DNA of 64,000 nucleotides from Giardia intestinalis (GCA_000002435.2 CM018789.1), one strand, 5' to 3'. Shown: positions 6,332 to 57,029, counted from the first letter of the stretch. A program made the numbers and translations. The notes: generated by a model from the letters alone, not told the origin.

Positions 6332-6536
6332 AGATCAGATCTCTCCTGGAGGTCTGCAGGGATACCTGTTGAGGAAAGGATCAGGGGAATGGACAGAGGA
6401 ATCATCAGAAGTGAGCCTTCTGACAAATGCGCATTGTCATCATTTTATTTATTTCCGGTTCCCGTGGAGATCAACCGCTGTCGGTGTACCCCCTCGTCAT
6501 TCTACTGGTGGATTAGTTTTGTCTGTGTACCCCAAC

Positions 6537-14915: not shown

Positions 14916-14999
14916 CATTTGGAATAGCCGTAGCACAGTCCTGAAGCCAGAATATTGGGGTGAGGCTGTTGCCTGTTATTTGAATGATCTTCCCATGTG

Positions 15000-16620
15000 A
15001 CCCACCGCCGCCCTGGGCAAGTCCCTCGCTCGTTCACCAACCGAGATCCAGATCCAGAGTTCGATCTCAGGTGTCAGGCGACTCCGACGGGAGAAGAACT
15101 TTTGTTCTTCCCTCTTCCCAAGGACGAGGCAGGGCAACCACGATCAGGGGACGATCATGATGCGCTCCACAAGGCAGTCCCGAGCCTCCTGGAGACCCAG
15201 ACACTGGTCTTCTTCGAGACCGAGCAGACTGCGTTCCACCGATTGCACATGGGTGGTGTCCGCATGGCATACATGGAGATGCAGACTGATGGGCACAGCG
15301 GTTTCGCTCGACATAACGAGCACCCTAACAGTAGACGGCCTCTGCCAGGCGAGTGTGCCCCGTCCCGAGGAGTTGCGTCGAGGCCTTCCTCTAATTGCGC
15401 CACGCTGCACCCCTGGACTCGGTCCCTCAGGACCCTGAGCATGCTTCTGTGCTGCGTGGGATAGAACCTGCTCACCAGGAACTGAAGGAGATACCTCGCT
15501 CACTGCCTTGCCGACGACACATCCATCTTCCATAGTAGCAACAGTGACGCGACGGGGATAGCCACAGAGGCGACAGGCCTGGCGAAGCAACATGGCTCGA
15601 CGGTCAACACTGGGTGTAGGAGCACGGAGGGGCAGGAGGCCTTCTTCCTGGCCGGTCTTAAGGAGCTTCCAAGGCAACGAAGAGCTTGAAGCTAGTGATG
15701 GCACCAATCACTCGCCCCGCCTGTCCAGACGGACCCACACGCGGCCCATATGAATCCCTCGACAGGCAAGTCGGGATCCTTGGAGTGTCTGGCTGACAGA
15801 AGTGGACTGATCCTGCCCACACCGGAGAGCGGTGACCTGGGCCACCCGCCAGGCGTCTGCCGCAGCAGCTGGCAGTGCTTGACACCCTCGAGTAGACGGG
15901 TGCCGATTGTAGAGCGAGACAACCAAGCGGTGAACCGGTCCCGATCGCTCGTGATGCTTTGGATGACGCCTCGGTGGACCGAAGCATCACCTCCAAGCGC
16001 ACCATATGATGCGAGGATGGATGGAGCCCACAGGTCAGCTGAGCCAGACGCACTGCACAGGGTGAGCGTCGACATGATCTCGTCCTGGGTGACGGAGCAT
16101 CTGCAAAAGTGCACTGCGATCCATAAGCAGAGGGCCGGGCCTCCTCCTCGACACCACCGCATGGGAGCTGTCCGCCGGCATCCACGAACGCGTACTCTAA
16201 CTCCAAGATAGAGGTGCACGGGGAGCGCACCCTCCCGGTCATACTCGGGACTGATGGTGCAATCCACGAGGAGACAAGGAGGCACCCCGAGGAACGGGGT
16301 AGGCACCCGGGGCCGTGGGGTGGGATCTTTGTCGTAGAGCACCGGCACCACAAAGCGATCCTGGAGTATATGACCAGAGTCAAGCTCCCAAGACCAGATC
16401 GCCGCGACTGACGCAAGGCCCGAGACAACGGGCGCCCACCGGTGCCAGGTGGTGGTTGCCCCAAGCCAGCCAGAGGATGGGAGAGATCCTAGAGGTAACG
16501 TGAGGAGCAGCGGCTTCCGGGGGAGGCGGGCATAGGAGTTCTTCCGCTGGGATCGAGGGCATCTAACTCTCGGAGTTCTGATCTCAGCTACTGCAGGAGT
16601 GAGAGGCTTGCCTAGGGTGG
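15000..16620. other. GC-rich island (about 60% GC against about 46% in the flanks) with no long ORF on either strand
   Basis: There is an abrupt composition shift directly after the PIG-M stop. All six frames are broken by stops every 150-800 bp. The overlapping short ORFs are rich in R/S/G/P and look non-coding. No rRNA-like or RT-like motifs were seen. Confidence 0.4.
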
Positions 16621-16747
16621 TGGTGGCTCACATGGGAGATTACTCTGATAATAGGTGACAACCTCATCTCAGTGAAACGAAGAGTAAACTGGGCTGAGAG
16701 TAAATGGGGGTGTACATTTTTGAAAAGCTGACGAACCAGCCAAATCT

Positions 16748-17032
16748 ATGTCTGGACTTAGCGACCGTGTTTCTAAGATACTCACAGACTCTACACACAT
16801 AGCGGATGCCATGAGCCAGAGCGTGGTTGATGGAGCTGTTACAGGAGTCGCCTGTCGGAGCATAAGCGAAAGTACGCGACCAATAGTTACCCAACAGGTC
16901 GCTCTCAACGAAACTGCTGCGCAGAGGCTTGGAGATCTCCTCCAGCAATCGTTTGAGAGTGAACGGATAGATAGCATCCACAGCTATGACGGCACGACCT
17001 ATTGCGAGATCTCGTGCTGGGGCGCATTCTGA
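16748..17032 (+). CDS. Small hypothetical ORF of 94 aa; its existence as a gene is uncertain
   Basis: ATG at 16748. Both this ORF and the antisense ORF 16664-16981 (which has no ATG start, only GTG) read as protein-like. The plus-strand ORF is followed by a 51-bp A/T-rich spacer and then the helicase gene. Confidence 0.25.
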   Translation: MSGLSDRVSKILTDSTHIADAMSQSVVDGAVTGVACRSISESTRPIVTQQVALNETAAQRLGDLLQQSFESERIDSIHSYDGTTYCEISCWGAF

Positions 17033-17083
17033 AAACGCAGAATAAATTGCAGCAGCTCTCTTGATAAATTACAATCCAACTAA

Positions 17084-35369: not shown

Positions 35370-36350
35370 TTAAGGGGACTTTGACGAAGCACGTGCACAT
35401 TTCACCGTTTGAACCTGCCATGCTTCCCGCACTGCCTCATAAATCTCCTTCACATTACACACATAGTCACAACCAAACACAATGTCGTGCCCGCACATAT
35501 CATGCCGTATTAGGATGCTTATCAGCCTGCAAGTAGCAGCCCCTGGAAGACAGGTCAAGTGGACATTGGCAACGGCTTGCTTCGAAGAATCGGCCTTGCA
35601 TATCCCCTCGTACAGAGTTTGTATTCGCATCAGTGCTAGTGAATTAAAGGGGGCATGGTTAGCTATACGTTTGTAGAGTTGCTCTTGGTCCTGAAACAGA
35701 TCTGCTGTGCTCGTTCGATAGTAGAAATGCTGAAGTACGAGGTTGTCTTTTCTATGCAGCTGTGCATGCCTCTGTGCACGCTGATAGGAGTTTATGGTAC
35801 TCTCATCTATCCAATCAGGAAGGCCAGGCTGGTTGAACGTTTCATTTACGAAAGTCTCGATAGCATCCTTGTCTAGTATGCAGCCTCTCGCTGAGGGATC
35901 CATTTTCATACTCCACAGCTCCTCTGTGTCGCGTGTCGGGGCTGCTACCATTCTATAGGAGAGGTGCGGATGCATTTGGTGAGTCCCCAGCTGGCTAACC
36001 GTGGCTACATACTCAACACTGGAATTAGTCGTCATAGATATCCCACTCTCCATCGTGTATAGCATGTTCCTACCGTCTATTGTCAGATTAATCATTAGTT
36101 CGTTAAGGTAAGATTGTAGTGCCCCTGTTTGCAATAGGTGTCTGTGACTAAATGTTTCACGAGTATCATTATACAGCGGGACATATACACATTCTAGCAC
36201 CGAGCCGTCGAGATCCTCTAGGTGTACGTGAGGAGCTGTATCGGGTATGGCCAGGAGCTCTTGCAATTCAACAATGGAGTATTCTGGGCCTGGCTTCAAG
36301 CAGCTAAGTGTTACATAGAGTAACAATACATGTAGAATCCCACAGACCAT
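35370..36350 (-). CDS. Hypothetical secreted or ER protein with a signal peptide
   Basis: ATG at 36348-36350. The N-terminal MVCGILHVLLLYVTLSCL is a typical cleavable signal peptide. Several N-glycosylation sequons and Cys residues are clustered near the C-terminus. Confidence 0.55.
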   Translation of the reverse strand: MVCGILHVLLLYVTLSCLKPGPEYSIVELQELLAIPDTAPHVHLEDLDGSVLECVYVPLYNDTRETFSHRHLLQTGALQSYLNELMINLTIDGRNMLYTMESGISMTTNSSVEYVATVSQLGTHQMHPHLSYRMVAAPTRDTEELWSMKMDPSARGCILDKDAIETFVNETFNQPGLPDWIDESTINSYQRAQRHAQLHRKDNLVLQHFYYRTSTADLFQDQEQLYKRIANHAPFNSLALMRIQTLYEGICKADSSKQAVANVHLTCLPGAATCRLISILIRHDMCGHDIVFGCDYVCNVKEIYEAVREAWQVQTVKCARASSKSP

Positions 36351-36519: not shown

Positions 36520-37554
36520 ATGGCGGCGGCATCCACGGCCAAGATAGTGATCATTGGTAGCTACAATCGGGACCTGGTATGGTATGTCAAAGACTTTCCT
36601 ATTGGAGGTCAGACGATCAATGGGAGCTTTGCGTCTTCCCACGGAGGTAAAGGGTCCAACCAGGCCATAGCCTGCGGAAAGGTTCTTCGTGATCCATCCA
36701 GGGCCTTCTTTGTGGGTGCGGTTGGCAAGGACACTTTTGGGGACGAGATTCTGGCTCATTATAGGGAGCTTGGCATCCCCAACTGCATCAAGCAGGTGTC
36801 CGGGGCACCCACCGGTAATGCAGGGATCTATGTTGCGGAGTCAGGAGAAAACATGATAGTCATCTCTGAGGGTGCTAATGGGATGCTAAAGCCAAGCCTG
36901 GTGCCGGATTTGATGGCTGTGTTGGTGAAAGCCACACTTGTAGTCATGCAGTGCGAAATTTCTCCAGACAATACACTCTTGTTTGTCGAGGTCATCAAGC
37001 AGGCTAAGGCACAGAATAGTAGTCTTCGATTTGTGTTCAACCCAGCACCGTATAGAGCTGACTATGACTTCAGCAAGATCCTTTCCATCACGGACATCTT
37101 CTGTCCTAATGAGCTGGAGGCGCTTGAGATATCTGGTACAGGCAGACTTGAAGGGATTTGCGACGATTCTATGATGAAGGCTCTTGTGGAGAAGATGTCT
37201 AGTCTTTCGCCTTCTCTCAAGTTCGTTCTTTTCACGCTGGGTAGCAGGGGGTCTCGCATAGTGCAGACAAAAAGCTATGAGTCTCGGACTGTTGGGATAT
37301 ACTCCCACGGGAGGGCGATTGACACATCAGGAGCTGGAGACTGCTTTATTGGCAGCTTTTGTGTGCGTCTTATGGAACTGGCCGAGGAGTCTACTCGTGG
37401 ACCATCTGCACTTAATGACATCGACACTATTGCAGAGGCTGCGCGCTTTGCAAGTGTTGCGGCAGGCATCTCTGTAACCCGCAAGGGTACCTCTGCGTCG
37501 GTTCCCAGGCGTCAAGAAGTGGATGATGCCCTGTCTAAATTTTCTGGTAAATAA
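36520..37554 (+). CDS. Ribokinase (PfkB carbohydrate kinase family)
   Basis: The ORF-track ATG is at 36499; the ATG at 36520 (ggtaaaaatattATG, MAAASTAKIVIIGS) is the likely start. The protein aligns end-to-end with bacterial RbsK: GGKGSNQA (GGKGANQA), FNPAPY (NPAPA), CPNELEALEISG (TPNETEAEKLTG), TLGSRGSRIV, DTSGAGDCFIGSF (DT.AAGD.F.GA) and VTRKGTSASVPRRQEVD (VTRKGAQPSVPWREEID). Confidence 0.9.
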   Translation: MAAASTAKIVIIGSYNRDLVWYVKDFPIGGQTINGSFASSHGGKGSNQAIACGKVLRDPSRAFFVGAVGKDTFGDEILAHYRELGIPNCIKQVSGAPTGNAGIYVAESGENMIVISEGANGMLKPSLVPDLMAVLVKATLVVMQCEISPDNTLLFVEVIKQAKAQNSSLRFVFNPAPYRADYDFSKILSITDIFCPNELEALEISGTGRLEGICDDSMMKALVEKMSSLSPSLKFVLFTLGSRGSRIVQTKSYESRTVGIYSHGRAIDTSGAGDCFIGSFCVRLMELAEESTRGPSALNDIDTIAEAARFASVAAGISVTRKGTSASVPRRQEVDDALSKFSGK

Positions 37555-37572
37555 AAGATTGATTTAAGCAAA

Positions 37573-38364
37573 ATGACTGTGTGTGTTGCTCAGGCGGAGC
37601 GTGGTGCGTCAGAGCTGGAGTCTAAGGCAATGGTGAAGAAAAGCAACGATGCTGCGTTACTAGTTGCCCACCGTATCGCGGAAGTTGTCCGCAGCAAGCC
37701 GAATTGCGTTCTGGGCCTGGCGACCGGATCGACCCCCATCCCCGTCTACCAGGAGCTCGCCCGTCTCCACCGCGAGGAGGGCCTGGACTTCTCGCAGGTC
37801 AGGACGTTCAACCTGGACGAGTATGCAGGGCTTCCTCCCACGCACGACCAGAGCTACCGCTTCTTCATGGAGGAGCACCTCTTCAGCAAGGTCAATATAA
37901 AGCCGGAGAATGTACACTTCTTGAGCGGACTGGCAATACGGGCTGAGGATGAATGCATAAGATATGAAAATGCGCTCCAAACAATTGGCCCCTGCGACGT
38001 CTGGCTTCTGGGGATCGGGCACAACGGTCACATCGCCTTCAACGAGCCGGGGTCCCCGAGAGACAGCAGGACGCGCGTCGTCTGCCTGACCCAGAGCACG
38101 ATCGACGCCAACGCGCGCTTCTTCGGAAACGACAAGTCGAAGGTCCCGACCAAGGCCCTCTCTGTGGGGATAGCAACCATCATGGAGAGCCGCGAGATCC
38201 TTCTTCTCGCCACCGGTGAGAGCAAGTGTGAGGCTGTGACAAAGGCCATAGTTGGGGAGCCAACAAATGCTGTTCCTGCCTCGCTGCTTCAAAGACATCC
38301 TCGCTGTTGCTTTTATGTCGATGAGGCCGCAGGTGCGGAAGTCGCCGAGACCGTTACAGAATAA
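37573..38364 (+). CDS. Glucosamine-6-phosphate deaminase/isomerase (NagB family)
   Basis: ATG at 37573 lies 18 nt after the ribokinase stop. Matches to NagB include VLGLATGSTP, RTFNLDEYAGLP (TFNMDEYVGLP), LLGIGHNGHIAFNEPGS (GGVGNDGHIAFNEP.S) and ANARFFGND.SKVPTKALSVGI ([22 protein letters not shown]). The gene body is markedly more GC-rich than its surroundings. AGTAAA occurs about 10 nt after the TAA. Confidence 0.9.
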   Translation: MTVCVAQAERGASELESKAMVKKSNDAALLVAHRIAEVVRSKPNCVLGLATGSTPIPVYQELARLHREEGLDFSQVRTFNLDEYAGLPPTHDQSYRFFMEEHLFSKVNIKPENVHFLSGLAIRAEDECIRYENALQTIGPCDVWLLGIGHNGHIAFNEPGSPRDSRTRVVCLTQSTIDANARFFGNDKSKVPTKALSVGIATIMESREILLLATGESKCEAVTKAIVGEPTNAVPASLLQRHPRCCFYVDEAAGAEVAETVTE

Positions 38365-38396
38365 ATTGTAAAGTAAAAAACACCTGGGGCTGAACC

Positions 38397-39950
38397 ATGC
38401 GGTGCTCCTGCGACGTCCGGGTTGTCTTTGCCGTAATTGGTTTCCTTCTCTTCGGCGGGATCACCACAATCGCGCAGAATGACTACCTCACTTACACAAC
38501 GACAAATTTCCCGGGAAAGGAGGGAGTAGTCACTGAGTTCGCTTATCCCTGGTTCGGGAACTTTCTGATGTTTTTTGCAATGAGCCTGGTAGGCATTGGG
38601 TGGGCATACCAAGCGGCAAAGGCGCGGAAGGACAAGCGCCTGTATGGAGGCGTTCCCGATCACAATAACGAGTACTCTACGGAGAATGCACGTGATTTAG
38701 ATTCTTCTACTGATGATGCATCAGATGTTCTAGAGAGCTTCCGCCCGTCAAAGCCCGTGCAGCGCCTTTCCTGTCGTCAGCGCTTTATGCAAAACGCTTG
38801 GGGAGTCCTCATAATTAGTTCAGTGTTTGATCTCCTAGCAAGCGGGCTAGGTTCTGTTGGGCTTAGCTCTATCTGTAACGTACCACCCTCCGTCTATCAA
38901 ATGCTCCAGGGCGCCATCATTATATTCACTGCCCTCCTTTCGCGCTGCTTCCTCAAACGCAAAACGACTGCTCAACAAAATCTTGCCATCTTCATATGTA
39001 TTTTGGGGCTAGTGATTATAGCAGTGGCTTCATACCTAGCAGACCTTTACTTCCCAGACATCCAACCGCCAGCTCCGCAGGATCCGCAGGTCCAGAATTA
39101 TATGCATCTTTATGATATACGCGCCATAGAGTACAAGCGAACACTTGCTAGTGCTGCTCTGCGCTTTGTTATGAAGCCACACGAGCGTAGGCAGCACGGG
39201 ATCCACACATATTTAGCTACGGCAGAATACAGGGATGGACAGGTACTCACCACCAGTCTGCCCAAGTTCCTGGACTGCGTTCTAGCTGCTGCTCCTCTCA
39301 CTACCGAGACTGAGAGTGACAAGACTAACAGCACCATGCTGGTCGTTGGAATAGTACTAATCTTAATCAGCCAACTTATCTACGCCGGCCAATTTGTCGT
39401 TGAAGAATATACCATGTCAAGAATAGATGCCTTTCCATCCCAAGTCGTGTGCATAGAAGGCATATACGGATTTATTATCAGTATTGGGCTTGTATTTCCC
39501 GTTCTTATGGCACTCAAGATTGAAAATGACTTCGATGCCTTTCTATTCATTAAATCAGAGCCTAACATTTTAGTTCCCATGAGCATATTCTTTATTACAG
39601 TGGCGTTGTACAACGGATTTGGGCAGACGATAACCAAATTGATATCAGCGAATCATCGGACAATCCTCGAGGGTTTGCGTGGACTGGTGGTATGGATTTT
39701 TGCCCTTATTGAGCGCGGCATATTTGGGGCCCCATGGGGAGAGGGCATCTACGGCTGGACAAGTGCGATAGAGGCAGTTGGCTTTGTTGTTCTCCTCGTC
39801 GGATCAATGGTTTATTATTCTATTATAAAGTGCAATTGCTTTAAGGGTTCACGGACGGAAACAACCAACAAGTTTGCTGCCATAATGGAGGAGACGTCAG
39901 CTGCGCCCTATGAGGTGTTCTGCTCTGAAACCGTTTCTTCGTCTGCATGA
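38397..39950 (+). CDS. Multi-pass membrane transporter, drug/metabolite transporter (DMT) superfamily, possibly SLC35F-like
   Basis: ATG at 38397 lies 32 nt after the deaminase stop. About 10 predicted hydrophobic helices are arranged as two halves separated by a roughly 110-aa hydrophilic loop. AYPWFGNFLMFFAMSLVGIGW resembles the conserved first-helix motif of SLC35F6-type transporters. The family assignment is tentative. Confidence 0.45.
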   Translation: MRCSCDVRVVFAVIGFLLFGGITTIAQNDYLTYTTTNFPGKEGVVTEFAYPWFGNFLMFFAMSLVGIGWAYQAAKARKDKRLYGGVPDHNNEYSTENARDLDSSTDDASDVLESFRPSKPVQRLSCRQRFMQNAWGVLIISSVFDLLASGLGSVGLSSICNVPPSVYQMLQGAIIIFTALLSRCFLKRKTTAQQNLAIFICILGLVIIAVASYLADLYFPDIQPPAPQDPQVQNYMHLYDIRAIEYKRTLASAALRFVMKPHERRQHGIHTYLATAEYRDGQVLTTSLPKFLDCVLAAAPLTTETESDKTNSTMLVVGIVLILISQLIYAGQFVVEEYTMSRIDAFPSQVVCIEGIYGFIISIGLVFPVLMALKIENDFDAFLFIKSEPNILVPMSIFFITVALYNGFGQTITKLISANHRTILEGLRGLVVWIFALIERGIFGAPWGEGIYGWTSAIEAVGFVVLLVGSMVYYSIIKCNCFKGSRTETTNKFAAIMEETSAAPYEVFCSETVSSSA

Positions 39951-39970: not shown

Positions 39971-40792
39971 CTATTCTGTCTGTAAGTCTATGCGAGGTAA
40001 TCTGTGTCCGGAGTCCGCGCTTATATTGTAGTAAACAATGTTGTGCCGCAATTCGTTCAGTTGCAGTGTTTGTTCCTTGACGATGAGCTGCCACTGCTCC
40101 CGGAAGGTCTTCAACTGGGCAGAAATTGCTGCGTGCTGTTCGAGTAGATGCTGTCTCCGACACCTGTTTGTATCGGGGATAGCTAATAGTGCCTGTTCTG
40201 CCTGAATAAGCTCGGTCTCTGCAACGCCGATCTTATGCTGAAGAAGCCTCAGCTCTCCAGCAATCAGGTTGACCCTCTTCATAGGCAAGGTGTGCATGGC
40301 AGACCCATCATCCATCAGCTGTGTTGGTTTAGGGATCAGAGGGTAGGATGTGGGTGCCGGTGGCTCACTTTCAGGAATGGGTGGGGATGATGAGGCCAAT
40401 GCCAAACTACGATCAATCGAGTGGAGCAACTTAGAAGCCTCGACAACAGAGCTAGTGACATGTTTGTCAAACGTTTCCTGGGCCAGGGAGGAGGTGTCTG
40501 GGGTGCACTTTGTGAGAGATGTCAGTTGACTAAGAGCTTGGGAAATGAGTTCTAGTTGAGCTTCGTCCGAAGTGCTAGTCGAACTATCATCAGCATAGAT
40601 CGGTGGTTCAAGAGACGCTAGCCGAAGGTCTGGCGGAGATGAGGACTTCTGCACAGGGGACGGATCGATCTGTGAAAAGGCTCCAGAAGGCTGTAGTTTG
40701 TCTTTTGCAAAATCAAAGGAAGCATCAAGATCGCAATCAAACCCCTGCGCTCTGAACCAGGACAATGACCACGGGGTCTTGTCCTCTGTCAT
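39971..40792 (-). CDS. Hypothetical protein of 273 aa with an S/P-rich N-terminal half and a C-terminal coiled coil
   Basis: ATG at 40790-40792. The ORF is uninterrupted. No domain was recognised. Confidence 0.45.
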   Translation of the reverse strand: MTEDKTPWSLSWFRAQGFDCDLDASFDFAKDKLQPSGAFSQIDPSPVQKSSSPPDLRLASLEPPIYADDSSTSTSDEAQLELISQALSQLTSLTKCTPDTSSLAQETFDKHVTSSVVEASKLLHSIDRSLALASSSPPIPESEPPAPTSYPLIPKPTQLMDDGSAMHTLPMKRVNLIAGELRLLQHKIGVAETELIQAEQALLAIPDTNRCRRQHLLEQHAAISAQLKTFREQWQLIVKEQTLQLNELRHNIVYYNISADSGHRLPRIDLQTE

Positions 40793-40989: not shown

Positions 40990-43900
40990 TCATGCTTCAG
41001 TGACAACCTCCTTAGCGTTCTCCCTATGACTGGCACAATTGGCGCAGATTTGACAAGGCGCTATACTGCTTATGTCTTGGTATGGGAAAAAGTATGCGTC
41101 TGTTGACATACACAAGGGGCAAAAATGACCGGTGCAGGCGTGACAGTAATGCTCTGGCCGTTTTCCGCCACACCTTGCACAGCGGTTACTAGGAAGTGCC
41201 GGTGCGCAGTCAATGTACCGAGGGAGTCGCATGATCATGGTCGATAAAGAAGCTACAACCCGGTCATTGATTGATAAACTCATATGCGAGCAATCCGTTG
41301 CAATCTTCCAGATGGGAGACCTACTACTGGTTACGATCTCTGCACACAGTTTGGGGACTAGAACGGTCACAGTGCGGTCTTTGAAGTACTCTACATGCTT
41401 TATTGCAAGGGGATGGGATGGTCTATGTGCCGGAGCTGTGCAAAGAAGATTTATGCGTGTGGGCTCAGAATCTGTCGTAACCTTGGTCTTGATCTTTATT
41501 CTCACCGTCTCTGTGAGAAGTGACGGTAGGAGTACGTAAACTCTGAGAACACCCTTCTTATCTCCCGTTAAGAGCAGGTTATCTGCAATGGCGAGAAAGG
41601 CTGTGGTCTCATAGGAGGGTAGAAGAGCATAGAGAAGTGCAAGGCTTGTGCTCCAACAAGAGAGGATCCCTTCTTGAAGCACCCAAATTCTGCCGGCAAT
41701 ATCAGCTATCTGAGTCTGGACGACAGACGATGGATGCTCCACCGGGCGCATTGGCTCAATGGCGTGAAGCTCCACAATGGCAGCGCCGGTGATGAGATTG
41801 TACAGAATATGCCTCTGACCTACAGAGACTAGAATAAGTCTATGGGGATGTGAAACTGTTACGGCCGAAAATGGCGGAGTGGCCAGAAGCCGAACATGCC
41901 CGGTGACACTCAGCAGGCCAGCTTTCAGAGCATCAGGAGCAAATAGGACTAAATGAGTAGTTGCATCGGTGAGTGTAATGATGATACAGCTGTACTGAAC
42001 AAAGCACTGTCTGATATAGATGTTCATGTGGCCTCTTCCATACAGAAGGAAAGGAAGATTTAGTGTGTGACAAGTATGGTGGGCCTGGTTAATTACGGCT
42101 ATGGTGCGCATGTCTCTCATCAAGATAAGTAGAGAGTCAGGTGCTAAGGAGTAAATGTTTGCCAACATGATCATGTTTTGTAATTGGGTGTGTGAAACGC
42201 GTGGTTGCTTTGTCAGTAGCAAATTGTAAAACCATGGAATAGCTTGCTGTGGGCTAAATATATCTGCAGTTGCCGTGGAAATATGTTCCCCTTCGGAAGT
42301 GCGGACCAGTGACACTTCAGTCGGGTAGAGCACCTTCAGGAGGTCGTCAATGTGGAGAAGGTAGTCATATATGCGAATTTTCGTTTCGTTCTTTCCCCTA
42401 GATCCTAATACAGACTGGTAGATGCACTGTAGCACAGGTCGCTCTTCCACAGACATGCAGATAACGTCTCTAGAGCAAACACCAAAGTTCTTAAGTTGAG
42501 AGTATGTGCTTATCCTCGTCGAGAAGTTAGAAATACAATCCAGCGCAACAGAATCAGGATATGTTAGCCAGTAGTATATATTGAAGTGAGCTAAGCTGTT
42601 CTGCTTGTCACCAAACAGAAGACGGCACCATTGATAAAGGCTTGGAAAGGTGGTATACTGAGCCAACCGTTCTCTATTTATTAACGTGTAAAGAACCGTG
42701 TGCAGATAGGTGTCTAAAATGTCCTTGCAAGCAGTGCAGCCAGTCGCGTTCATAGAGTCACAGACCAAGTCATGGACTGCCTCGCCTGTGCTTCGTATAC
42801 CAAAGTCATGAGCAGACTCATTAAGGAACATATTTGGCGCATAGAATAGCTCTGGTATGAGTTCTCGGCACTCGCTGAGATTTGTATCCTTCACGGAGCT
42901 CCACAAATCCGACACATTGCTGAAAATCCTATCTGGGTTATCATATTTTCCATCATGTAGAAGGAGAGCTGCTGCCGAGAAGGGCTGAGATCTGAGGAGC
43001 ATTCCAGCAACAAACCCAGAGGTAGAGTAATGGCTCCCAGCAAGGAACGGAGCCGTTGTGAGGCTGTTATATCTATCCATATACTTTGCACGCTTGGACT
43101 CCGTCTGCTCCATGACTGTTTTGGCCAAGTTGCGGTCATCTGCAAGCCATGGAAATACAGGATACATAGAAGTGTCGCTGGAGCAGCGTCCAGCTACCAT
43201 ATTCAGCGCAATAACAGCCTCAATATGGCTTAGCTTTCCTGAGAACAAAAGTATTGGAATACTGAGGGTAGAGGGAAGCTTAGACCAGGGCATGGACTCC
43301 GAAATGCGGTTGATGCTGGGACCTAAACCAAGGGAAGGCCTTTCTGCAGCGTGATAAGAGGATAAGAGAGAGGTATAGAGGGCCGTGCTATCAATGATTT
43401 CGCCGAAGTGTTGCTGGGCCTTTGTGATGAGGATTAGAGCTTCCTCGAGCAGAGTGGCAAGTTGCTTGTTTAGTGCTTGCAAGACAGTCTTGAAAATATC
43501 ACTATATTGCGCTGTGATAGCCGATATCTGCTGAGGAAATGGCAGCTCATAAGGGTGCTCGTATAAACTTGCTTCAGATGGAGTGTCAGCATAGTTGATC
43601 TGTGGGATTTGAGAGCAGCATGAGTCCAAATGCATGCGCCATTTAGAGATATATTTCTTCAGCGATGCAACATTCGGTAACACAATTTCAAACCGTGCAG
43701 TGCCAAGATCACAGTCCCAGGATCCTTGTAGAGAGGTCTTCATCAAAGAGAAGATGAGAGCTATTGCAGACAGAAGGGAGTTGTTCTGTAGCATTAGTTG
43801 GCAGCTCGTGAATCTGTCAGATACCGGTGTTTTTGTTAGAACTGAGCGTGAACACTCCTGTTGAACGCGCAACATAAAGGCATGATCGTTGACGTAATGA

Positions 43901-46900
43901 TTTAGCCGCAATCGCCTAGATGAAATACTATCAAGTATCTCGTAAGTGTAAACCTCGCCTTGCTGAAGGAGAACCTCTATTTGCGTGCACCTGTGCGCCG
44001 ACTCCTTCCACAGAACGCTAGATATGTCTGACAATTTAATTGTTGTCATAAAAGGCAACAACTGAGCGGACCCTGTGCTGAGTTTTGCAGTTTGTTCTAG
44101 TAGAAGCCGCACATCTGTAAGGCACCGTTTTTCAAGGGCAGATTGTTCTGTGTGAGAGTCCGAGAGGTTCATTACTGGCGCTATAGAGTACTCGGAAACT
44201 GGCCTTCCTGGGGGATAGTTGCATCGCTTGACCAGAGAGGTCAAAAAGTGCTTGAGGTCTTTGAGAATCTCTCTTTGGGGCCCATGCTGCTCAGAAACGA
44301 GTTCTAGCTTTTGCTCAGGAAGTCTGGTCGATATAAGCAGTGTTTGTAGCATCTCTTGCATAGACGAAACGATCTTTTTAACAATCGAAGGCTGATGCAC
44401 TGCAGTTGGCAGCTCCTCCTCTTTCTCAGCAGAGATCTCTTGCGGTGAAATACTAAACGCATGCTCCCTCAACCCATAAATAATCTCCTCAGAGACCAAC
44501 CTCCACCCTGGAATGAAGTATATTGCCAAATCGGTAAGGATAAGAATGCCCTCATTTGGTGAAACCAGCTCTGTCTCATAACTGGCATATGCAATGAACT
44601 GCACTAATTCTGTGGCTGGTAAGATGTCTGCAAGACTGATAACGGAGTTGGCCTGCAATATATCATGAACTTTCCGCTCCAACTGTATCAGTAGAGACTC
44701 AAGCACTTGGGATGCTTTGTACTCTGGCGTGAATGCGCATGTTGCTCCAATGAGATTCTTTGTCCTCAATGAAAACTCATGAGATGTTCGATGGTAGCCT
44801 GCTACGCAAGCGAGAGGACCGCCCAAGTGGTAATAGCGACTTACGGCAGCGATAGTGGACAAAAGATAGTATACACTCCCTGAGCGAATGGGACTTAGGT
44901 GAATGTATGGAGCAGGAGTAACCACTCGACGAATGGCTTTAACCGGCGCGTTGGCAAAAGAGCTTGAAGACTTGGCTACTAGGTGTATGCTGCCGCTCAG
45001 CCCCATCGCCGTCAATCTAAAGCAATGTCGTCCAAATAGATATGACTCTACAATAACAAGTGTTTTGAACCTAGACGACTGCAGGGTACTGGGATTCGCT
45101 CTATTAGGATCCGTGTATTGCCTCACAAAGTCTAGAAGTGACGTAGTCGTGCCTTGGACCTTGACTTTTCCTTCCACAGATAGGTCTTCCCCATATATGG
45201 TCTGAATAAGATCAATAATGCACGTTATATTTCCAAGCTTGAAAGTGCTGGCAACAAAATAGAAGAATATGACAGACGAAAAAGGTATCATAGTTCTTAC
45301 TACTTTAGAGATTGCATGGGCCAATTCTACATTTGATGTATGAAGTATTGAGAGCAGAATAGCATTAATGACACCCTGTACAATCTTGAACTTTGTGAAA
45401 TTAAATCCCTGAAGCAGCTCACTGAATTTTATAGGTGTACGGCCTGGTTTCCCAGCAACATCAGAGGATACAGCTATTGCATCATCATCGCTTTCCGACA
45501 CAACAGATTTAGACGTGACGAACTCTAACATCTTGTTGTAGTGCTTGTATAGTTGCAGCTTCAACTTTGGACTCTCTGCTTTACCCAAGTAAATGTTACA
45601 GAGCTTTGTCACTGTAAGATCATTCTGCAGGATTTGCTTGATAAGTGTAAATGGATATCCATGTGTTGCAACGTTTCCAAGAGAATTATGAAACGAAAGA
45701 GGAAGAATCTCCAATGCGAGAATTTGCATAATTAATTCCTCATATTTAGAGCATAGGTCATTTGCAGATGGCTCCAGTGTTCGATGTTCCATAGCAAGAG
45801 AATAGTACTCAAAGACACAGGTGACGTATTCAATGAATAGGTCAGGAGAATTTAAGGTCTTTACCTGTGAGGTGAGAGTGCGTACAAACAAAAGATACAT
45901 GGCTTGCATGTATTGTAACGTGTCTTGTAGAACGGTAAGTGAATACTCTCCCAAGTCCAGATATCTCGCCAAGAGACGTAGCACAGAGGAAAAGACCAAG
46001 TCCACAAAGGGACCTATACTCAGGAGGTCTGTCTGAGTGTTTTCCACAAGCTCTTTGTGGAGCTTCACAATCCGGCGCTCCTTGGGCACAGAGTTCTTCG
46101 AAGAAACAATAACTGTCTGCGTGAGAGGAGAGAGGTGTAGTGGCGTATGGTGTGTGTATGAAGCCCCGGCTAACGACTCACAGATAAACTTCAAAAGGTC
46201 AAGGCACTTTTGCAGTGATGATACCTCTGTTGTAGCTACATATCCTGAGAGGGAGACAGCAAGACTCTCCGAAAGCAGCAAAGCTAGCAGTGATGAGAGG
46301 GATGCACAGGCCTTGTCGATCGCACAGAGCCGAAGGTTCTTAAACAAAAACCGGGTAATCATCTCTTGTGCTACAAGAGCCTTGCTGCTAAGAGGACTTG
46401 TATCTGCGAGCTCCACAGAATCTCCGAGTGCAGAACTGGTCGCTACTTCGACAATGTCATCAGAAGCTGTGTGTACTGATGCAGCTGCGTAAACCAAAGA
46501 CACCAGTAGCAGGAGATGGCTTGAGTATCCATAGATGGCTTCTAGAGGATCACTGCTGGATGCACACTTTTGAATATGCTCCAGCTCAATTGGGAAAGCC
46601 TTCTGAAGCTCACGAGGCGCAATCACTCGGTAAAACACCTGCAGCGTGCAGTCAAAATTCTGAACATTATGATAAATGATAAACTCATTCGGATTCGCGG
46701 GCTCCAATAAGCTTCTTGGTCCTGACAATGTGCGTCTATCCTCTGGCCCTACTATATCACCTGTTCCAAGCGGTGCTGTAAAAAAGAATTGAGCAGCATT
46801 AAGAGTCATGCTTAAATCTGAAAGATAGTGTTTGAATAGCTCTCCTGGCGTATTGTTAACCATAACTGCTTCAAACATTGATAGAAGATACCTTAGTGTA

Positions 46901-49900
46901 TGATTGAAGGTCTGAGGTGTTTTTAGTTGCAAGCAGTAAAATATGCGCAGCCCGCTGATGAAGGGCATGAAATACTCCATGTTGCAAATGCTTCCGTTGA
47001 GTGCATATGTGGAGGTGGACAATCGGAACCACGTCAATGGATCAAGGTGCTCAGTAACCGCGGCCGTCGATACTGAAAGGAATGACGCTAGAAGTGAGAA
47101 TGCAGTCGCTAAAAATGCGTCGATAAGTGGACTCAATACCTGCGTTTGCCGAAGAGCGTCAAAGCACAGCTCAATAACAGTTCTGTATGCACCGCAGATA
47201 AGGTATAGTTGTGGAAGAGACTTGTGTTCGTCTGTGTAACGGATTACATAGCATGCAGAGTAGAGTTGCTGTATGATGGCCTTAAGGGATAGCGAAGTCA
47301 ACTGCTCGATTACCAAGCAGTGATCGCTTCCGTCCGGGACTTCAGAAGACTCATTAACATCCTGGGCTATATGTGGATATAAAGCGAAAGAAGCTTGAAG
47401 AGAGGTGTAAGAGATCTGCAACTGATCAAAAATAACATCGGAGTTAAGAACCGTAAGCATGTCAACATGCACACTTGACGGCGTCCCCGAGGAAGAGTTA
47501 CTTCGTATATTGGCCAGGCGATTGATTATTAGCGTAACATATCCAGTCATGCCGTGAAGTATGGCGTGTTTGGCAAGAGACACATATGGAGAGGTGCTGC
47601 TGTGCTGTTGTATGCAGTTTGCATGGTCACTAATAGTACCCGCCACAGAAAGCGAGTGCGTGTGAAGGGATGCCGTTATAAAAACCGTAGCACGAGATAG
47701 TGTCTTTATGAAAGCAAGCCCTACCGCAGAGTGAGCTACATCCTCTGCAGCAATCAGGGTATACATAATTCCAAAGGACTCAGTGGCTATGTATGTAAAC
47801 TTTTGTGATATCTCCAAAAGAGACTGAAGAGGATTGGCAGAGGTCACGAGAATAGAACCAGCATAGATGAGAAATGCATCCATCATGCCGTGTATATACT
47901 GAAGCCAAAAGTCAGGAGTGAGTAGCTGTGCAAATAACTTGATATTTTTAGACGATTGCAAAAGGAGGCCTCTCAGCAGGTAAAGCATAAGCGGAACCGA
48001 GTCACTGGACAGTGCAATAGTGGCCGGCCATAAACACATAAATGAACTAACAGAATCTGCCACAAGTAGCTCCTCAACTAGGTAGTCAGCAAGCTCAGTT
48101 GGTATGCTAGATATTCCTGACTCCGTAATGGTTTCCAAAGTGAAGGAGATGGCATTCAAAAGAGCACCACAACGCTGCGAGTAAGCAAAAAGAGCGAAAA
48201 GAGCGTCACTCGCAGCAGAGCTTAGGCTTCCCTGAGATGCTATAATTAACGCTCTACACGCGGGTAAGAGTAGATTGCAATCGATGTTAACTGGTAAACT
48301 CCTTGAGTAGGCTAATGGGAAAAGAAACCTTTCCAGTGGAGGATTGGCAGAGACCACTGCACCAGATAGGGGCTTGGCTGTTACGGACAGAAATAGCTTG
48401 GTATTATCATCAGTTTGTGAGTGTATAAAGCACGAACTAGTTTGCGTGTGTTGTAACAGATTGACGCTGGAGTCAAAGACGAGCAACCCCTTACCAATGT
48501 ACCACTTATCTATTCTTTCTAATTCACCAATCCGGGGGACTTTCACGATAAAACGCTTGAGAAGAGTAATGCTGGATAAAATTATAGACACTTTTGACCC
48601 CATATCAAGATACTTACGCAGTAATAGATTGGGATCTCCTCCCGTGATGCGTGCCAGTATGCCCATATATGTATGTAGTTCGCCTAACATGAGCACAAGC
48701 GACTGCCGCGACATTCCGAAGAGAGCAGACGTAGTGAACAGACTTGGAATAAAATTCTGATCAAAAAGGGAAAGCTGCTCGTGAAACGAGATAAAGTGGT
48801 GCACCGTGCCCAAGACTCCTGTTCGCTTAGCCTCGGAGAAGAAATCTCCTGACGAGCCTTGCTGATGAAATAGCTTGAAAAATGCACGTTGATACCTGGT
48901 GAGAAACGCAGAAACACACTCTCCGCTCCATGGCACAGGGTCTGGGGTGGTCTTCTCTGAGATTTGAGAGGAGATGAATGAGGATAACTCTAAAGAAGAA
49001 ACGATTGGTACCTTGGTGAGAGTCTGGATCAAAAGCATAAGAAGGGAGATTCCACTGTAGAAAGGAACAGATGTAACAGGTTCCAGATAACCCAGGCGGA
49101 ATAGTAGATCATCCAAAAGAAGCGTACCATCAACCGATGTTATTGCCTTTAGAAACTCGTTGTAGATAATTAGTGACGTAAGGGGTACAACTGACGCTAA
49201 ATGGTTGACAACAGGTTGCATGTTTTCATTCAGCTCTACGGAATTAGGTTCTGCAGTCTTTAAAAAGGAAAATACAAGAGAGTCAGGCTGAAGAGACGTA
49301 GTATTGAACATCAGTGATTGCTGAGAAGAATGCGTTCGGATATCATAAAGTGTCGAAAGGGCAGAACTTTTATCACCTTGAAGTAGACGGCGAGACGGGG
49401 GTTCAGATGGCTGCGCACAATATGGGCAAGATACCGTGTACTCTTTGGGATGAGCCACTAGCTCACCAGTCCTGTTAACAGAAGCTTGTAGATCTGCGCA
49501 TAATAGGTCGAAAAGTAGGTAGTCTGAGGTGGAGACCATATTACACTGAGGGCAAAAGAAGCCTCTACGTTGTAACGAGTGACAGCCCTCAGTAAAATTT
49601 TTGCAGTCAGAATAGATGTGCAGATACAAAGATTCAAAATCGGTGGCAAACGCATCCAGATACCTGCTGGATAAGTGCTCAACTGAGACCTCGTGCTGTT
49701 CTAAATATTGGGGAAACGCGCACAAGCAATCCTCAACAATGAGGGGCTCGGTTTTGCCTGGTGTGCTACTAATTATCTTGATGGCTGAAAGAGGATGTGT
49801 TTGACCTAATAGAGAGGTATGTGGGGTATCCAGTGGATCGTAAAAGCTGAGTCCGCATGGCATACGCGACTGGGATCTAAGATCATGTGCTAGCCCGAGT

Positions 49901-52900
49901 ATGCTACCGAAGCTGGCGGGATCGTTGAATAGCTTCGAAATAGGCATACTCTTGTCAGTCAGCAGAGATACTTGAAATGGAGTAAGAATAAATGGTGAGA
50001 CAAGAACCTGATCATACAGTAGTGATCCCTCTGTTGTTATCTCAATCTTCAAGGGGAGGCAGAGCCTAGGAAGCTGCTCTAAGCGAAGGGACGCAGAAGA
50101 TCCATTAACCGTGACGGTTAAACCACAGATGGGTGTAAAAGAAGTGCCGAGGATAAATGAACTATGCTTCGAAACGCTTGACATTCCAAACCCAGAAACC
50201 GCTACACCAATAGTAAGCTCTCCATCTTCCACTGCGCTGGAGGGAAAGGCGTAATCGAGGGAATAAGTCCAAGCAACTGATGTAGCAACCAATCTTCGTA
50301 AGGACAAGTCCAGCGACAAGGTAAGAATAATCTCCGCGGAGTCAATTGAGAATATAGTTAAAACTAGGGAGCTGCTGTAACTATGGGTGTGAGAGCCATG
50401 TAGTATAACATGCAAGGCCTGCAATTTCTTGCTGCCATCAGTACTAGCATTAAGCTTATCACCCAATGTGTACATAGAGGAGTTCTTGGTCCTTCTATAG
50501 CCTAGCATGCTCTCGTGATATAATGCAAAGGATTGTGTGGTCGCCTTAAAGTACTGATCTGGCAAGCAAGAAGCTTCGGTTCGATGCCTTGAAAAGTGGT
50601 ACAAAAGTGATAATATCGATTGTGTGCAACTGTCATGTGGCGCTTTCAAAAGTACTTTTTCTAACCAGTGAATTGTCAATCCATTGGAATGCAGCAAGAG
50701 GACAGGTAAAAATCTTGTAATGCTTTTATTCTCATTCCCATCTAAAGTGGTAAAAAGTAAAGTCAAGAAGTTAGTGTTCCCCACAACAACTGAGCCAAGA
50801 CGCGCTCGATGACGAACCGCCAGCTCAATCGGTACACCTGTCTCCATAAGCTCCCTGTGCTTCTCAAAGACAGTTTTATCAAACGGAGTGTCCCTGGTTT
50901 CCAAGCAGCTAAGGTAGAATAACAAAACTGAAGGGTCTTCCAAGTAGTGGGCACGGATTGGTATCACCAGTTGCTCGCCATATGGGCATGCTAGTATAAC
51001 AAGGGAGTAGTAACGTTCTGGAATCTGCTGCGCATACCCCTTGAGCTTTCCTGACAGGCCAGTTATAAGGTTGCCCAGGCCAGAATCTGTATGAGGTGTG
51101 CCAGGTACACACTCTGCTCGAGAAAGCTTCATCTTAGAACAGAGCACATCGCATATAACAGGAAGATAATTATTTTCAGCAGATGCTAAGAAAACAGTCG
51201 CAAGAGTAAGATTGGCCGCAATGGTACTTTCCCATCGCTCCTCTAATTTGAACTCCACGCACACCAGAGAAAGGAGTTTTTCTTGCAATAAGGGAGTTGT
51301 GGAATAGTAAAAAAGATATGCCAACAGAATAACCTCAAAAAGCTCAAGCGGCTTAGCAATATTACAACCCAACCCAGCCCAAAGTGAACCATCGCCTTGT
51401 GAGGATATCCATCCTTGGGAAATGCAGGCGCAGAGACAGCACATGTTGTAGATAATAGGAAATTCATTTAATTCCTGAATCGGTGCGTAGCCTAACAGAA
51501 CGTCTTTGGAAATAGTTAGTCCGGGTTTTGTAAGGAATTCTGTGCGAGCATACTGTATCAATAAATCCAATCTGATACAACTGGCGGAGCGACCCCTGAA
51601 AAATAATAGCACAGAGGAAGCATAAGCATGGAAGTTACATGTCAATAGCGTATGCAATGCCTCAAGCAGGCCTGACGCCTGGAGTAGCGCTTCAGATGTG
51701 TCATAGTTTTCTTGCAAACGTAAGAGTATATTCAACAAATCCATGTTGGACCAGCGAGGTGTGTCGGAAGCACACCCTGATAAGCTACCCTTGGAAAGTA
51801 GGCCAGCAAAGAAAGCATAGACATCAAAGAATCTATTCAAAGAGTTATCCGTTGATTTGAGCACTCTTGTAGAGTGTTGTACCAAAGAATCCAAAAGGGC
51901 ATAGAACGGCTCAGATGCAGACAGCGAGTCTTGGTCCAATGTTATTAAATATGGGATGATCCATTCTAGTAAATTCGTAATAGTCGAGGAGCCGCTGTCT
52001 AGAAATGGATAAGGCTGTCTGGTGTGCAAATTAATGAGTCTGGTGAGAACTTGCACAAACAGTGTACATGTTGAATTACGAAGCAGAACGGAGTGCTGAA
52101 TGTCATATTTGTCACACGAGGTATTGCCCTCATTCGATTGTGGATAGATATCTAAATCTATTAGGGGAAGAGTAAGCAGATCTGCCACAAAGTTAGTAAT
52201 CCAGTTGGTACCCCGAACACTAATGCACGATGCATTTAGTAGAGCTGCTGTCAAGGAATCACTAGGAGGTTCCTGAAACGCTTTCAGGATAGATTGCTGT
52301 TCCTCTATGGAGATAGGTTGGAAAATAGTAACCAGTAAGAGCAAGCGAAATAATGCTGGGAACATTTGACGATCATATCTAAACGACTTGATCAGGAGTT
52401 CCTTAAGAAGTTGCAACTGCTCTGAATCAAGCACGAAGATGCCTTGTGTGTAATAACAACACAAGAGCGTATTCTCGATGATAACCGAAATATATTTATC
52501 ATAGTGGTCTCCTGTATCGAGCAACTTTCGACCAGCCTCGCGAAGTAGAGTCTTTGATAGTTGAATTATGCTCTCGATATCTTTTGATGACATCCTGCTG
52601 TCTATAATGTGGTAGAGAAGCAGGGTGGATGAGTCCTTTGGCCGTGCAAGAGAGCACCTACTACATCCGTTGCTATTAGTGTCTATGGCTGGCTGAGTTT
52701 CTGTGTCATCCAGGGCGGAGAACACATCTTTAGGTGAGAAGAGTAAGAGTGGAGAGAGACCATCAGGGGCGGACATTTGAAGTACACATGAATCTTCACA
52801 TCCAACAAGGCTAGCTAGATCTTTAATATAAATAAGTTCGAGAGCAGAGAGGGAGTCCATCCAGGAAATAATGGATGGCATTGTCGCCGTCGTATACTGA

Positions 52901-56065: not shown

Positions 56066-57029
56066 AGTGTCGCCAGGTTTTTGTTTCTGAATTCAACCCG
56101 ACTCTAGAAGAGTCCGGGTTCCAATCCTGGCAAAGTAACGTAAGGGTAGTAAGCATTTACATCAGACAACCAGCTGGAGTACTTTGACTCCCAAGATTTC
56201 TTGAATTTTCTCTCGTCCGTCATGGCATTGTTAATTTTACCAAATCCTCTAGGCTTCAGTCCCAAACAAACACATCTCCATGTCTTGCTTCCATGTGCTG
56301 ACCGCTTTCTCAAGAAGAAACCCCTGCAGCAGATCAGCTGGCTAGGAGTTCGGGATACATATTCCTAAAATCCCGCTAGCGCAGCCAAGGTCGAGCGAGT
56401 GGTTTTCAAGGCCTAAAGTGTCTCGTAGGGAAGGATGAAGATGCGGATGACTCACAGCTATATTCGTACTCGGTAATGCATACATGAAAGCCCCAAAGTG
56501 ATTTCCAACAACCATAACCACAACACAACCTGGCCATTTCCCCCACGTCGCTGAGCACTCATCTAACCACAGAAAGAACCAAATCTTCGTCAAGGCAACA
56601 AGTACTAACATTGAGTAAAGGAGTCAGATCTCATAAGTAAGCTCATAGTCGTGCTTGCTCGGAGACAGATAATCATTCTGCGAGGAACCAAGGAGTAGTC
56701 TGAATCGGGTTAGGCGTCCTACCGTCAGCCTGGGCGCATCGAACTGAATAACCCGCGTCGCAGCCTCTTTCAGCGAGCACTCTCAGTCGGGCAAGGCCCT
56801 CCTCCTGGCATAAGCACAGAGGCTCTTGGTTTCTGGTGCGACTGCTGCACGCGTTGGCGCGCCTCCCTCACGGAAAATGACCTCAGACCTTCCCCCGACC
56901 GCGGTCGGTGGCGCCCCTCCTAATTCCTGTCTTTCCAGGCTATCTTTTCGGTGATGTGAATTTAAACTGGTTGCATTTGGACAATTTAAGTACAATGGCT
57001 AAGAAGGCGGTTTGCAGGCATTCCTCCCA
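56066..57029. other. Unusually long (964 bp) non-coding spacer between the cyclin and LRR genes; only short, non-protein-like ORFs on either strand
   Basis: Seen directly in the sequence: there is no ORF above 90 aa, the composition is about 50% GC, and a tRNA T-arm-like motif (CCGGG-TTCCAAT-CCTGG at 56114-56130) occurs without a matching acceptor stem. Confidence 0.4.

Follow-up and report, generated by a model that had tools for sequence, protein, structure and literature searches.

A duplicated glucosamine-6-phosphate deaminase gene between two old neighbours in Giardia intestinalis, with tracts probably kept alike by gene conversion

A stretch of 64,000 nucleotides of Giardia intestinalis DNA (GCA_000002435.2, CM018789.1; referred to here, at its full length, as the window) carries three adjacent genes on the plus strand, coding for a ribokinase, a glucosamine-6-phosphate (GlcN6P) deaminase and a multispanning membrane protein. 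The open reading frames (ORFs) span 36520-37554 (344 aa, counted from its first ATG), 37573-38364 (263 aa) and 38397-39950 (517 aa), and are separated by gaps of 18 and 32 nt. Coordinates and spacers exactly reproduce those of a first-pass annotation of the same DNA, which had proposed that the three genes might form a co-acquired or co-regulated sugar module. Its guess of a Giardia-like host also proved right, as the five proteins of the locus (the trio and both flanks) are exact G. intestinalis WB C6 entries. In all likelihood these are three annotated genes, each transcribed on its own, in which the deaminase, GPI2, is a duplicate of the paralogue GPI1 situated between two old neighbours, with tracts of its sequence kept by gene conversion. 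The features of the trio are the following.

36520-37554, plus strand: ribokinase GL50803_15297, PfkB family (XP_001709091, PDB 6WHJ).
37546-37552, plus strand: GGTAAAT, one mismatch from the Giardia poly(A) signal AGTRAAY, across the ribokinase stop codon.
37555-37572, plus strand: 18-nt spacer with the ribokinase poly(A) site (about 37561, as the 7-nt 3' UTR implies) and an A/T-rich stretch before the GPI2 ATG.
37573-38364, plus strand: glucosamine-6-phosphate deaminase 2 (GPI2, GL50803_10829), short NagB type (UniProt O97440, XP_001709089).
38372-38377, plus strand: AGTAAA poly(A) signal of GPI2, inside the 32-nt spacer and kept in assemblage E.
38397-39950, plus strand: GL50803_90425, predicted polytopic DMT-superfamily membrane protein (EamA / SLC35F-like), exact match to XP_001709088.

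The same 18- and 32-nt gaps follow from published coordinates on scaffold CH991762, where GL50803_15297 is at 164824-165858(-) and GL50803_10829 at 164014-164805(-) (PMC3877021, proteomics supplement), and GL50803_90425 at 162428-163981(-) (PMC3610916, RNA-seq supplement). Tight packing is the norm in this region: of the window's 29 spacers (median 67 nt), 10 do not exceed 32 nt, and the gaps within the trio are ordinary. The genes, both deaminase paralogues and the lateral transfer of nagB are all already known from the literature.

The paralogue GPI1 (GL50803_8245, also Gln6PI-B or G6PI-B; P0055, XP_001709043, 266 aa) has 83-86% protein identity to GPI2 and clusters with UniProt O97439, 'deaminase 1'. 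It is located at CH991762:67732-68532(-), on the same chromosome and strand and 95.5 kb from GPI2 (coordinates from PMC3877021). The two genes belong to the same family and have 98-99% DNA identity over two tracts (492 nt in all); GPI2 differs in its locus, in its N-terminus (a 15-16-residue extension) and in a central island, and it has neither the Cys-rich C-terminal tail nor the Myb2 box of GPI1. Along the coding sequence of GPI2 the segments alternate as follows.

37573-37665, plus strand: GPI2 N-terminal island, with the 15-16-residue extension that is absent from GPI1 and G. muris.
37666-37920, plus strand: conversion tract 1, common to GPI1; GC content at third codon positions (GC3) 0.82.
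37921-37989, plus strand: GPI2 central island; GC3 0.39.
37990-38226, plus strand: conversion tract 2, common to GPI1; GC3 0.87, with a perfect 203-nt run at 37999-38201.
38227-38364, plus strand: GPI2 C-terminal island; GC3 0.42, without the Cys-rich tail of GPI1 and G. muris.

These segments were compared between assemblage A (GPI2 of the window; GPI1 from L002 and L017) and assemblage E (L018, L019), the C-terminal island being taken as 38227-38361. Tract 1 differs from GPI1 of the same assemblage at 4-5 of 255 nt, against 18-21 differences between the A and E orthologues, and all 14 informative sites group the sequences by assemblage and none by paralogue. The corresponding values for tract 2 are 2 of 237 nt, 16-18 differences, and again 14 sites to none. 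The islands show the reverse: the N-terminal island is 40% identical to GPI1 at the nucleotide level and 89% identical to assemblage E GPI2 (23 sites by paralogue, 1 by assemblage), the central island is 54% identical to GPI1 (24 and 2) and the C-terminal island 55% (53 and 0). Across the islands, identity is 40-55% between paralogues and 83-96% between A and E orthologues. When the informative sites are pooled, the tracts have 28 by assemblage and 0 by paralogue, and the islands 3 and 100, respectively; a Fisher test on near-identical counts (27/0 against 3/101) gives p=5e-25. For the proteins of assemblages A and B the corresponding counts are 6:0 within the tracts and 0:16 elsewhere. Since the paralogues are closer to each other than the orthologues are within the tracts (28:0 sites), interlocus gene conversion is implied, and, judged from these alignments, the tracts are a case of concerted evolution that has continued after the assemblages split. 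Their near-identity is unlikely to be an assembly artefact, since WB, DHA2 and P15 agree.

It might be supposed instead that the tracts are nearly identical because purifying selection on the catalytic core is extreme, or that their GC excess is bacterial composition that has not yet ameliorated. Conserved motifs, NLDEY and GIGHNGHIAFNEPGS among them, do lie in the tracts, and a high GC3 could reflect expression-linked codon bias. Selection on the protein is nevertheless hardly credible as the cause, as the synonymous sites are the same between the paralogues yet differ between assemblages (2-5 against 18-21 differences, and the 28:0 sites). The compositional form of this explanation is equally hard to credit, with a GC3 of 0.44 in the GPI2-specific segments, and with a published transfer that predates the Giardia-Spironucleus split; a transfer of that age is far older than this locus, and amelioration should be complete.

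The first-pass annotation had described both enzymes as GC-elevated, a pattern that it called common among genes acquired from bacteria. The window as a whole has a GC content of 47.5%. GPI2 is indeed elevated, at 57.8% (GC3 0.693); the ribokinase, which had been put at about 54%, has 50.7% (GC3 0.533), and the transporter gene GL50803_90425 has 48.1% (GC3 0.514). Relative to 27 further long ORFs in the window (mean GC3 0.51, sd 0.061), the z-scores are +3.0 for the deaminase, +0.4 for the ribokinase and 0.1 for the DMT gene, so that the deaminase is the sole outlier of the trio. Within GPI2 the excess is confined to the tracts common to GPI1 (GC 62%, GC3 0.85); the GPI2-specific segments (GC 51.5%) are at or below the local norm of GC3. 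The composition is consequently that of the shared tracts, and not the footprint of a foreign origin at this locus. Outliers of GC or GC3 in Giardia can arise by conversion from a codon-biased paralogue, which makes composition alone a poor flag for horizontal transfer.

A 212-aa antisense ORF at 37660-38298 (-) covers the greater part of the deaminase gene and probably exists only because the GC3-rich codons leave the opposite strand without stops. The RefSeq number XP_001709090, which falls between the accessions of the ribokinase and the deaminase, may or may not belong to this ORF.

GPI2 is a conserved paralogue under purifying selection, with an intact NagB core, and not a decaying copy. 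Between assemblages A and E the ratio of non-synonymous to synonymous substitution rates (dN/dS) comes to 0.073, and all 12 changes in the central island are synonymous. The protein matches Pfam Glucosamine_iso (PF01182) over residues 25-241 with 102.5 bits (cut-off 27, E=4e-29). Catalysis in E. coli NagB depends on the Asp in N(L/M)DEY together with the His and Glu in G.GHI.FNEPGS; the NLDEY and GIGHNGHIAFNEPGS motifs of GPI2, both within the conversion tracts, align with those of solved NagB and GNPDA1 chains. Recombinant GPI1 and GPI2 reportedly have comparable kinetics, according to Knodler et al. in 1999.

Induction in encystation, or functional expression, is reported for GPI1 only, and GPI2 has been reported as not induced (PMC4281351); the title of van Keulen 1998 likewise names only GPI1 as encystation-activated. 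The suggestion that the deaminase of the window is the entry enzyme of cyst-wall N-acetylgalactosamine (GalNAc) synthesis was thus attached to the wrong paralogue. A Myb2 box, CTACAG, is found at -45 of GPI1 in assemblage A and at -41 of its G. muris orthologue. In a search for Myb-type elements upstream of GPI2, as the first-pass annotation had advised, the preceding 280 bp of the window proved free of C[TA]ACAG, as did the 150 bp compared in assemblages A and E. The nearest site on the upstream side is at 37289-37294 on the minus strand, and across the window the motif occurs 76 times, against 74 expected by chance. As GPI2 has no encystation promoter element, it is probably a low-level, non-induced isozyme, whose basal expression would be driven by a short A/T-rich promoter of its own and would not depend on encystation. 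Giardia trophozoites are reported to have no GlcN6P synthase (PMC4281351). GPI2 could supply GlcN6P for UDP-GlcNAc in trophozoites, or it may degrade GlcN6P or salvaged amino sugars.

Assemblage E also has the GPI1 box at -45, but as the reverse complement, CTGTAG (L019 2950-3000 compared with L017 9950-10000).

The genes flanking the trio provide anchors for a comparison of gene order.

35370-36350, minus strand: GL50803_15296, hypothetical protein, the upstream synteny anchor; exact match to XP_001709092, with a G. muris homologue beside the ribokinase.
39971-40792, minus strand: GL50803_10832, hypothetical protein, the convergent downstream neighbour; exact match to XP_001709087, in the same place in assemblage E.

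In G. muris (CM016928.1, L014) the order is a 300-aa gene (-), the ribokinase (+), a spacer of 66 nt and a 516-aa DMT gene (+), with no deaminase between the ribokinase and the DMT gene. The DMT proteins are 48% identical over 507 aa, and the upstream protein is 36% identical to GL50803_15296 (E=7e-16). The deaminase of G. muris, the only one among the homologues found, is located about 50 kb from the ribokinase block, where the gene order is Kelch(+) / ~600-aa gene(-) / deaminase / Utp14 / Nop10(-). GPI1 has the same surroundings in A2 and E, as read from the DHA2 and P15 loci. GPI1 and the G. muris deaminase have in common a short N-terminus and a Cys-rich C-terminal tail, both absent from GPI2. 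The shared context, N-terminus, tail and Myb2 box indicate that GPI1 is ancestral and GPI2 the derived copy.

Assemblage E also has the trio (L018). In assemblage B there is a gap of 834 nt between the ribokinase and the DMT gene, and the trio is inferred there by coordinates; on C/D-like contigs, which stop soon after the start of GPI2, its N-terminus begins 13 nt past the ribokinase. Most likely, the ribokinase and DMT genes are old neighbours, and GPI2 was inserted into their spacer in the G. intestinalis lineage. The insertion would then date from after the split from G. muris and before the divergence of assemblages A, B and E. A search for signatures of the insertion showed that the similarity between GPI1 and GPI2 stops at the coding sequence, and found no arguable target-site duplication or poly(A) remnant beyond a run of six A after AGT.

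That the ribokinase and the DMT gene are an ancient diplomonad pair was also considered and was rejected: in Hexamita inflata the ribokinase has no DMT neighbour, the DMT homologue being on a different contig.

Several observations weigh against this account of GPI2. The unconverted islands of GPI2 have 40-55% nucleotide identity to GPI1 and 36-48% to G. muris, and in the central island GPI1 is closer to G. muris, at 68%. Given such divergence, the duplication could predate the G. muris split, with a clean loss of the copy there; alternatively, GPI2 evolved fast. The trees are neighbour-joining trees with sparse sampling of eukaryotes, and the grouping of GPI1 with GPI2 in them is inflated by the conversion itself. 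The spectral counts of GL50803_10829 rise to 30 and 24 at the last two points of a 14-h encystation course (PMC3877021), and this does not support a GPI2 that is not induced; about 62% of GPI2 is identical to GPI1, however, so that shared peptides confound these counts and the rise is uninterpretable. No paralogue-specific expression of GL50803_10829 was found in the available portions of the supplements of PMC8700996, PMC3792122 and PMC3610916.

An older duplication, in which the Giardia ancestor had GPI2 at this locus and G. muris later deleted it cleanly, would suit the unconverted islands, where GPI2 differs from GPI1 about as much as it does from the deaminase of G. muris. It is nonetheless unlikely. 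It would require a precise deletion leaving the 66-nt spacer, there is only one G. muris deaminase among the homologues, and the N-terminus, Cys-rich tail, Myb2 box and context common to GPI1 and G. muris identify GPI2 as the derived copy.

The identity of the paralogues has practical consequences. RNA-seq, proteomics and short-read assemblies are blind to the distinction between GL50803_10829 and GL50803_8245 over 62% of the length, and published 'induction' values for GPI1 or GPI2 need a paralogue-specific re-reading.

The deaminase was described at first as a bacterial-type enzyme that aligns end to end with E. coli NagB. The alignment holds, with residues 44-257 matching 34-247 of 266. Among solved chains the scores for GPI2 are 201 bits for 2bkv (E=1e-58), 196 for human GNPDA1 and 177 for E. 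coli NagB. The chain 2bkv, which we take to be the non-allosteric NagB of Bacillus subtilis, is the best PDB match (residues 29-253), as would suit a short prokaryotic NagB, although GPI2 is only about 45% identical to it. Identity to human GNPDA1 is about 44%. Outside the Giardia-like clade, at least 110 of the best matches are prokaryotic or metagenomic short NagB sequences, with 54-60% identity and 270-298 bits. In the neighbour-joining tree the Giardia deaminase clade (100% bootstrap) is nested among the short NagB proteins of prokaryotes and is widely separated from the human and hexameric chains. A prokaryotic origin of the deaminase is therefore supported by the sequence comparisons, but it is already published: Andersson et al. 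2006 inferred that the diplomonad ancestor received nagB laterally from an unsampled eubacterium, and that this preceded the separation of Giardia and Spironucleus (PMC1484493); maximum-likelihood analyses are also in print.

Deaminases on metagenome contigs from Logan and IMG (P0058 on L011-L013, P0305 and P0059) are 66-69% identical to the Giardia enzymes and fall into one clade with them (100% bootstrap); their likely sources are relatives of Giardia that have not been sampled, or other diplomonads. P0058 and P0305 have a Cys-containing C-terminal tail, and the intergenic spacers around the deaminase in L011-L013 are several hundred nt long.

The ribokinase is 100% identical over 344 aa to PDB 6WHJ (named Ribokinase) and XP_001709091, and matches Pfam PfkB (PF00294) with 150.3 bits (cut-off 25.8, E=1e-43). 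Here too the end-to-end alignment with the E. coli enzyme is confirmed, residues 7-338 matching 5-305 of the 309 residues of RbsK. In E. coli RbsK, ribose binding and catalysis depend on Asn14, Asp16, Gly42, Lys43, Asn46, Glu143 and Asp255, and in the alignment with 1gqt the segments GSYNRD, GGKGSNQ, MQCE and AGDCF are found at the matching sites. Like E. coli RbsK and human RBKS, the Giardia enzyme keeps the motifs for binding ribose and ATP, N..D, GGKG.NQ, the E of MQxE and AGD.F; it differs from them in being only 34-36% identical and in having about 35 extra residues. Such an enzyme would recycle ribose from nucleoside salvage. The dN/dS value between assemblages A and E is 0.055.

Identity of the ribokinase is 36% to E. 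coli, 34% to human and 37% to Physarum, and its closest relative outside Giardia is that of Hexamita inflata (40-42%). In the neighbour-joining tree these two form a diplomonad clade with 89% support, whose position is otherwise unresolved. No specific bacterial sister group is present in the tree; bacteria, Asgard archaea, red algae, Physarum and human are all 33.5-41% identical. On the sequence evidence the ribokinase is not demonstrably bacterial-type, and the claim of its horizontal transfer is unsupported. Of the two enzymes first labelled as bacterial-type, only the deaminase, with its place in the tree and its 54-60% identity to prokaryotic sequences, retains that description.

The 3' untranslated region (UTR) of GL50803_15297 is 7 nt long in WB, AS175 and GS and 11 nt in P15 (PMC3610916 Table S1, poly(A) mapping). 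With 7 nt, the ribokinase mRNA ends within the 18-nt gap, upstream of the deaminase ATG, which speaks against a read-through of the ribokinase transcript into GPI2. The earlier observation that only the deaminase is followed by an AGTAAA-like signal was correct as far as the AGTAAA at 38372 and the lack of an exact AGTRAA in the 18-nt gap are concerned; it overlooked the near-consensus GGTAAAT that overlaps the ribokinase stop. The sites orthologous to GGTAAAT are AGTAAA in assemblage E, AGTAAAT on a C/D-like contig and AGTGAAC in G. muris. In WB trophozoites the expression of the ribokinase is 338 fragments per kilobase per million reads (FPKM), and that of GL50803_90425 is 143 (PMC3610916).

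Taken alone, GL50803_90425 has only weak EamA/TPT matches in Pfam, below the gathering cut-offs (22.1 against 28.2). In its family, 14 of 14 members match EamA (best 1e-12) and 8 of 14 match SLC35F, with CRT-like and PUNUT matches also seen, and the family profile matches the CMP-sialic acid transporter 6i1r (E=5e-8). There are eight clear hydrophobic spans. The EamA repeats and the match to 6i1r are as in the SLC35 / DMT nucleotide-sugar and SLC35F / CRT-like transporters, from which the protein differs by a hydrophilic insert of about 100 aa (residues 215-312). Close homologues were found only in Giardia-like sequences, Hexamita and Chilomastix, followed by distant eukaryotic DMT proteins; the homologue search returned no prokaryotic one. 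From these matches it would be a eukaryotic DMT-superfamily protein and a predicted transporter.

The 3' UTR of GL50803_90425 is 99 nt long (PMC3610916) but the convergent GL50803_10832 ends only 20 nt downstream, so the transcripts of the two genes must overlap tail to tail.

It remains to consider the proposal that the trio is a co-acquired bacterial cluster, or a co-regulated sugar module feeding cyst-wall GalNAc synthesis. The shared strand and tight spacing, the prokaryote-like deaminase and the plausible relation of all three genes to sugars speak for it. Yet the gene order of G. muris, with the ribokinase adjoining the DMT gene and no deaminase, already contradicts such a unit, and in Hexamita the ribokinase is not beside the DMT homologue. 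The close relatives of the DMT protein are Fornicata-like eukaryotes only, with none from prokaryotes, and the ribokinase belongs to a diplomonad clade without a bacterial sister. As for co-regulation, the cyst-wall enzyme is the other paralogue, GPI1, no Myb2 box is near GPI2, the ribokinase has its own poly(A) site 7 nt past the stop, the FPKM values are 338 and 143, and 10 of the 29 spacers in the window are just as short. The proposal is thus very improbable; the cluster gives no evidence for a transferred sugar operon, and its deaminase is not the cyst-wall entry enzyme.

A duplicate of GPI1 placed between two old neighbours leaves the alternation of tracts and islands to be interpreted. 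Recurrent conversion between GPI1 and GPI2 has most likely kept the two tracts of about 250 bp, which encode the conserved enzyme core, 98-99% identical, while the three GPI2 islands (N-terminal, central and C-terminal) escape conversion and are under purifying selection. The result may be a long-lived mosaic, in which conversion keeps the catalytic core of the non-induced paralogue identical to that of the induced one, importing GC3-rich codons, and selection protects three islands with paralogue-specific properties; to our minds the case for this proposal is evenly balanced. Candidates for these are the extended N-terminus, contacts at the surface or in the quaternary structure, and the Cys-rich tail. 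Paralogues that are closer than orthologues in sharp-edged tracts are also seen in other cases of interlocus conversion with selection-protected islands (PMC3728101, PMC2720389). GPI1 and GPI2 differ from the general cases in being 95.5 kb apart in a tetraploid binucleate protist, with developmental induction of one and apparently none of the other.

Ectopic recombination in Giardia has gone on since the assemblages separated, as the conversion tracts show directly. If the mosaic is real, it would serve as a natural marker of recombination, whether mitotic or between nuclei, in a tetraploid that is supposed to be asexual, and would explain the mixing of GPI1 and GPI2 in short-read assemblies and in proteomics. 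In the literature open to searching, no report on conversion between GPI1 and GPI2 was found, and the tract-limited conversion together with the evidence for the insertion of GPI2 is possibly unreported, as a modest new detail.

Among Giardia assemblies from ENA and Logan there are chimeric deaminases that mix GPI1 and GPI2 islands (P0295-P0297, P0300-P0304); one of these, on contigs of 92 and 95 kb, combines the N- and C-terminus of GPI2 with the central island of GPI1. Either the assembler swapped paths within the identical tracts, or these are genuine alleles produced by conversion. Short-read contigs from a divergent assemblage (L009, L010, L016; Logan ERR3333378/80/82) all stop about 130 nt into GPI2, which is consistent with a collapse of the assembly graph at the identical tracts of GPI1 and GPI2.

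Elsewhere in the window, an Rfam scan of its whole length gave nothing in the 36520-39950 region and two hits above the gathering score: the C/D-box snoRNA GlsR14 at 6378-6445 (-), with 100 bits, and nuclear RNase P RNA at 56684-56927 (-), with 78 bits. At 14950-17050, in gene-dense surroundings, about 2 kb have a GC content of 57-61% and overlapping ORFs in several frames, none of them long and clean; the two longest have no Pfam match. Finally, an ORF of 4207 aa is located at 40990-53613 (-), and its assemblage E orthologue has a BEACH domain.

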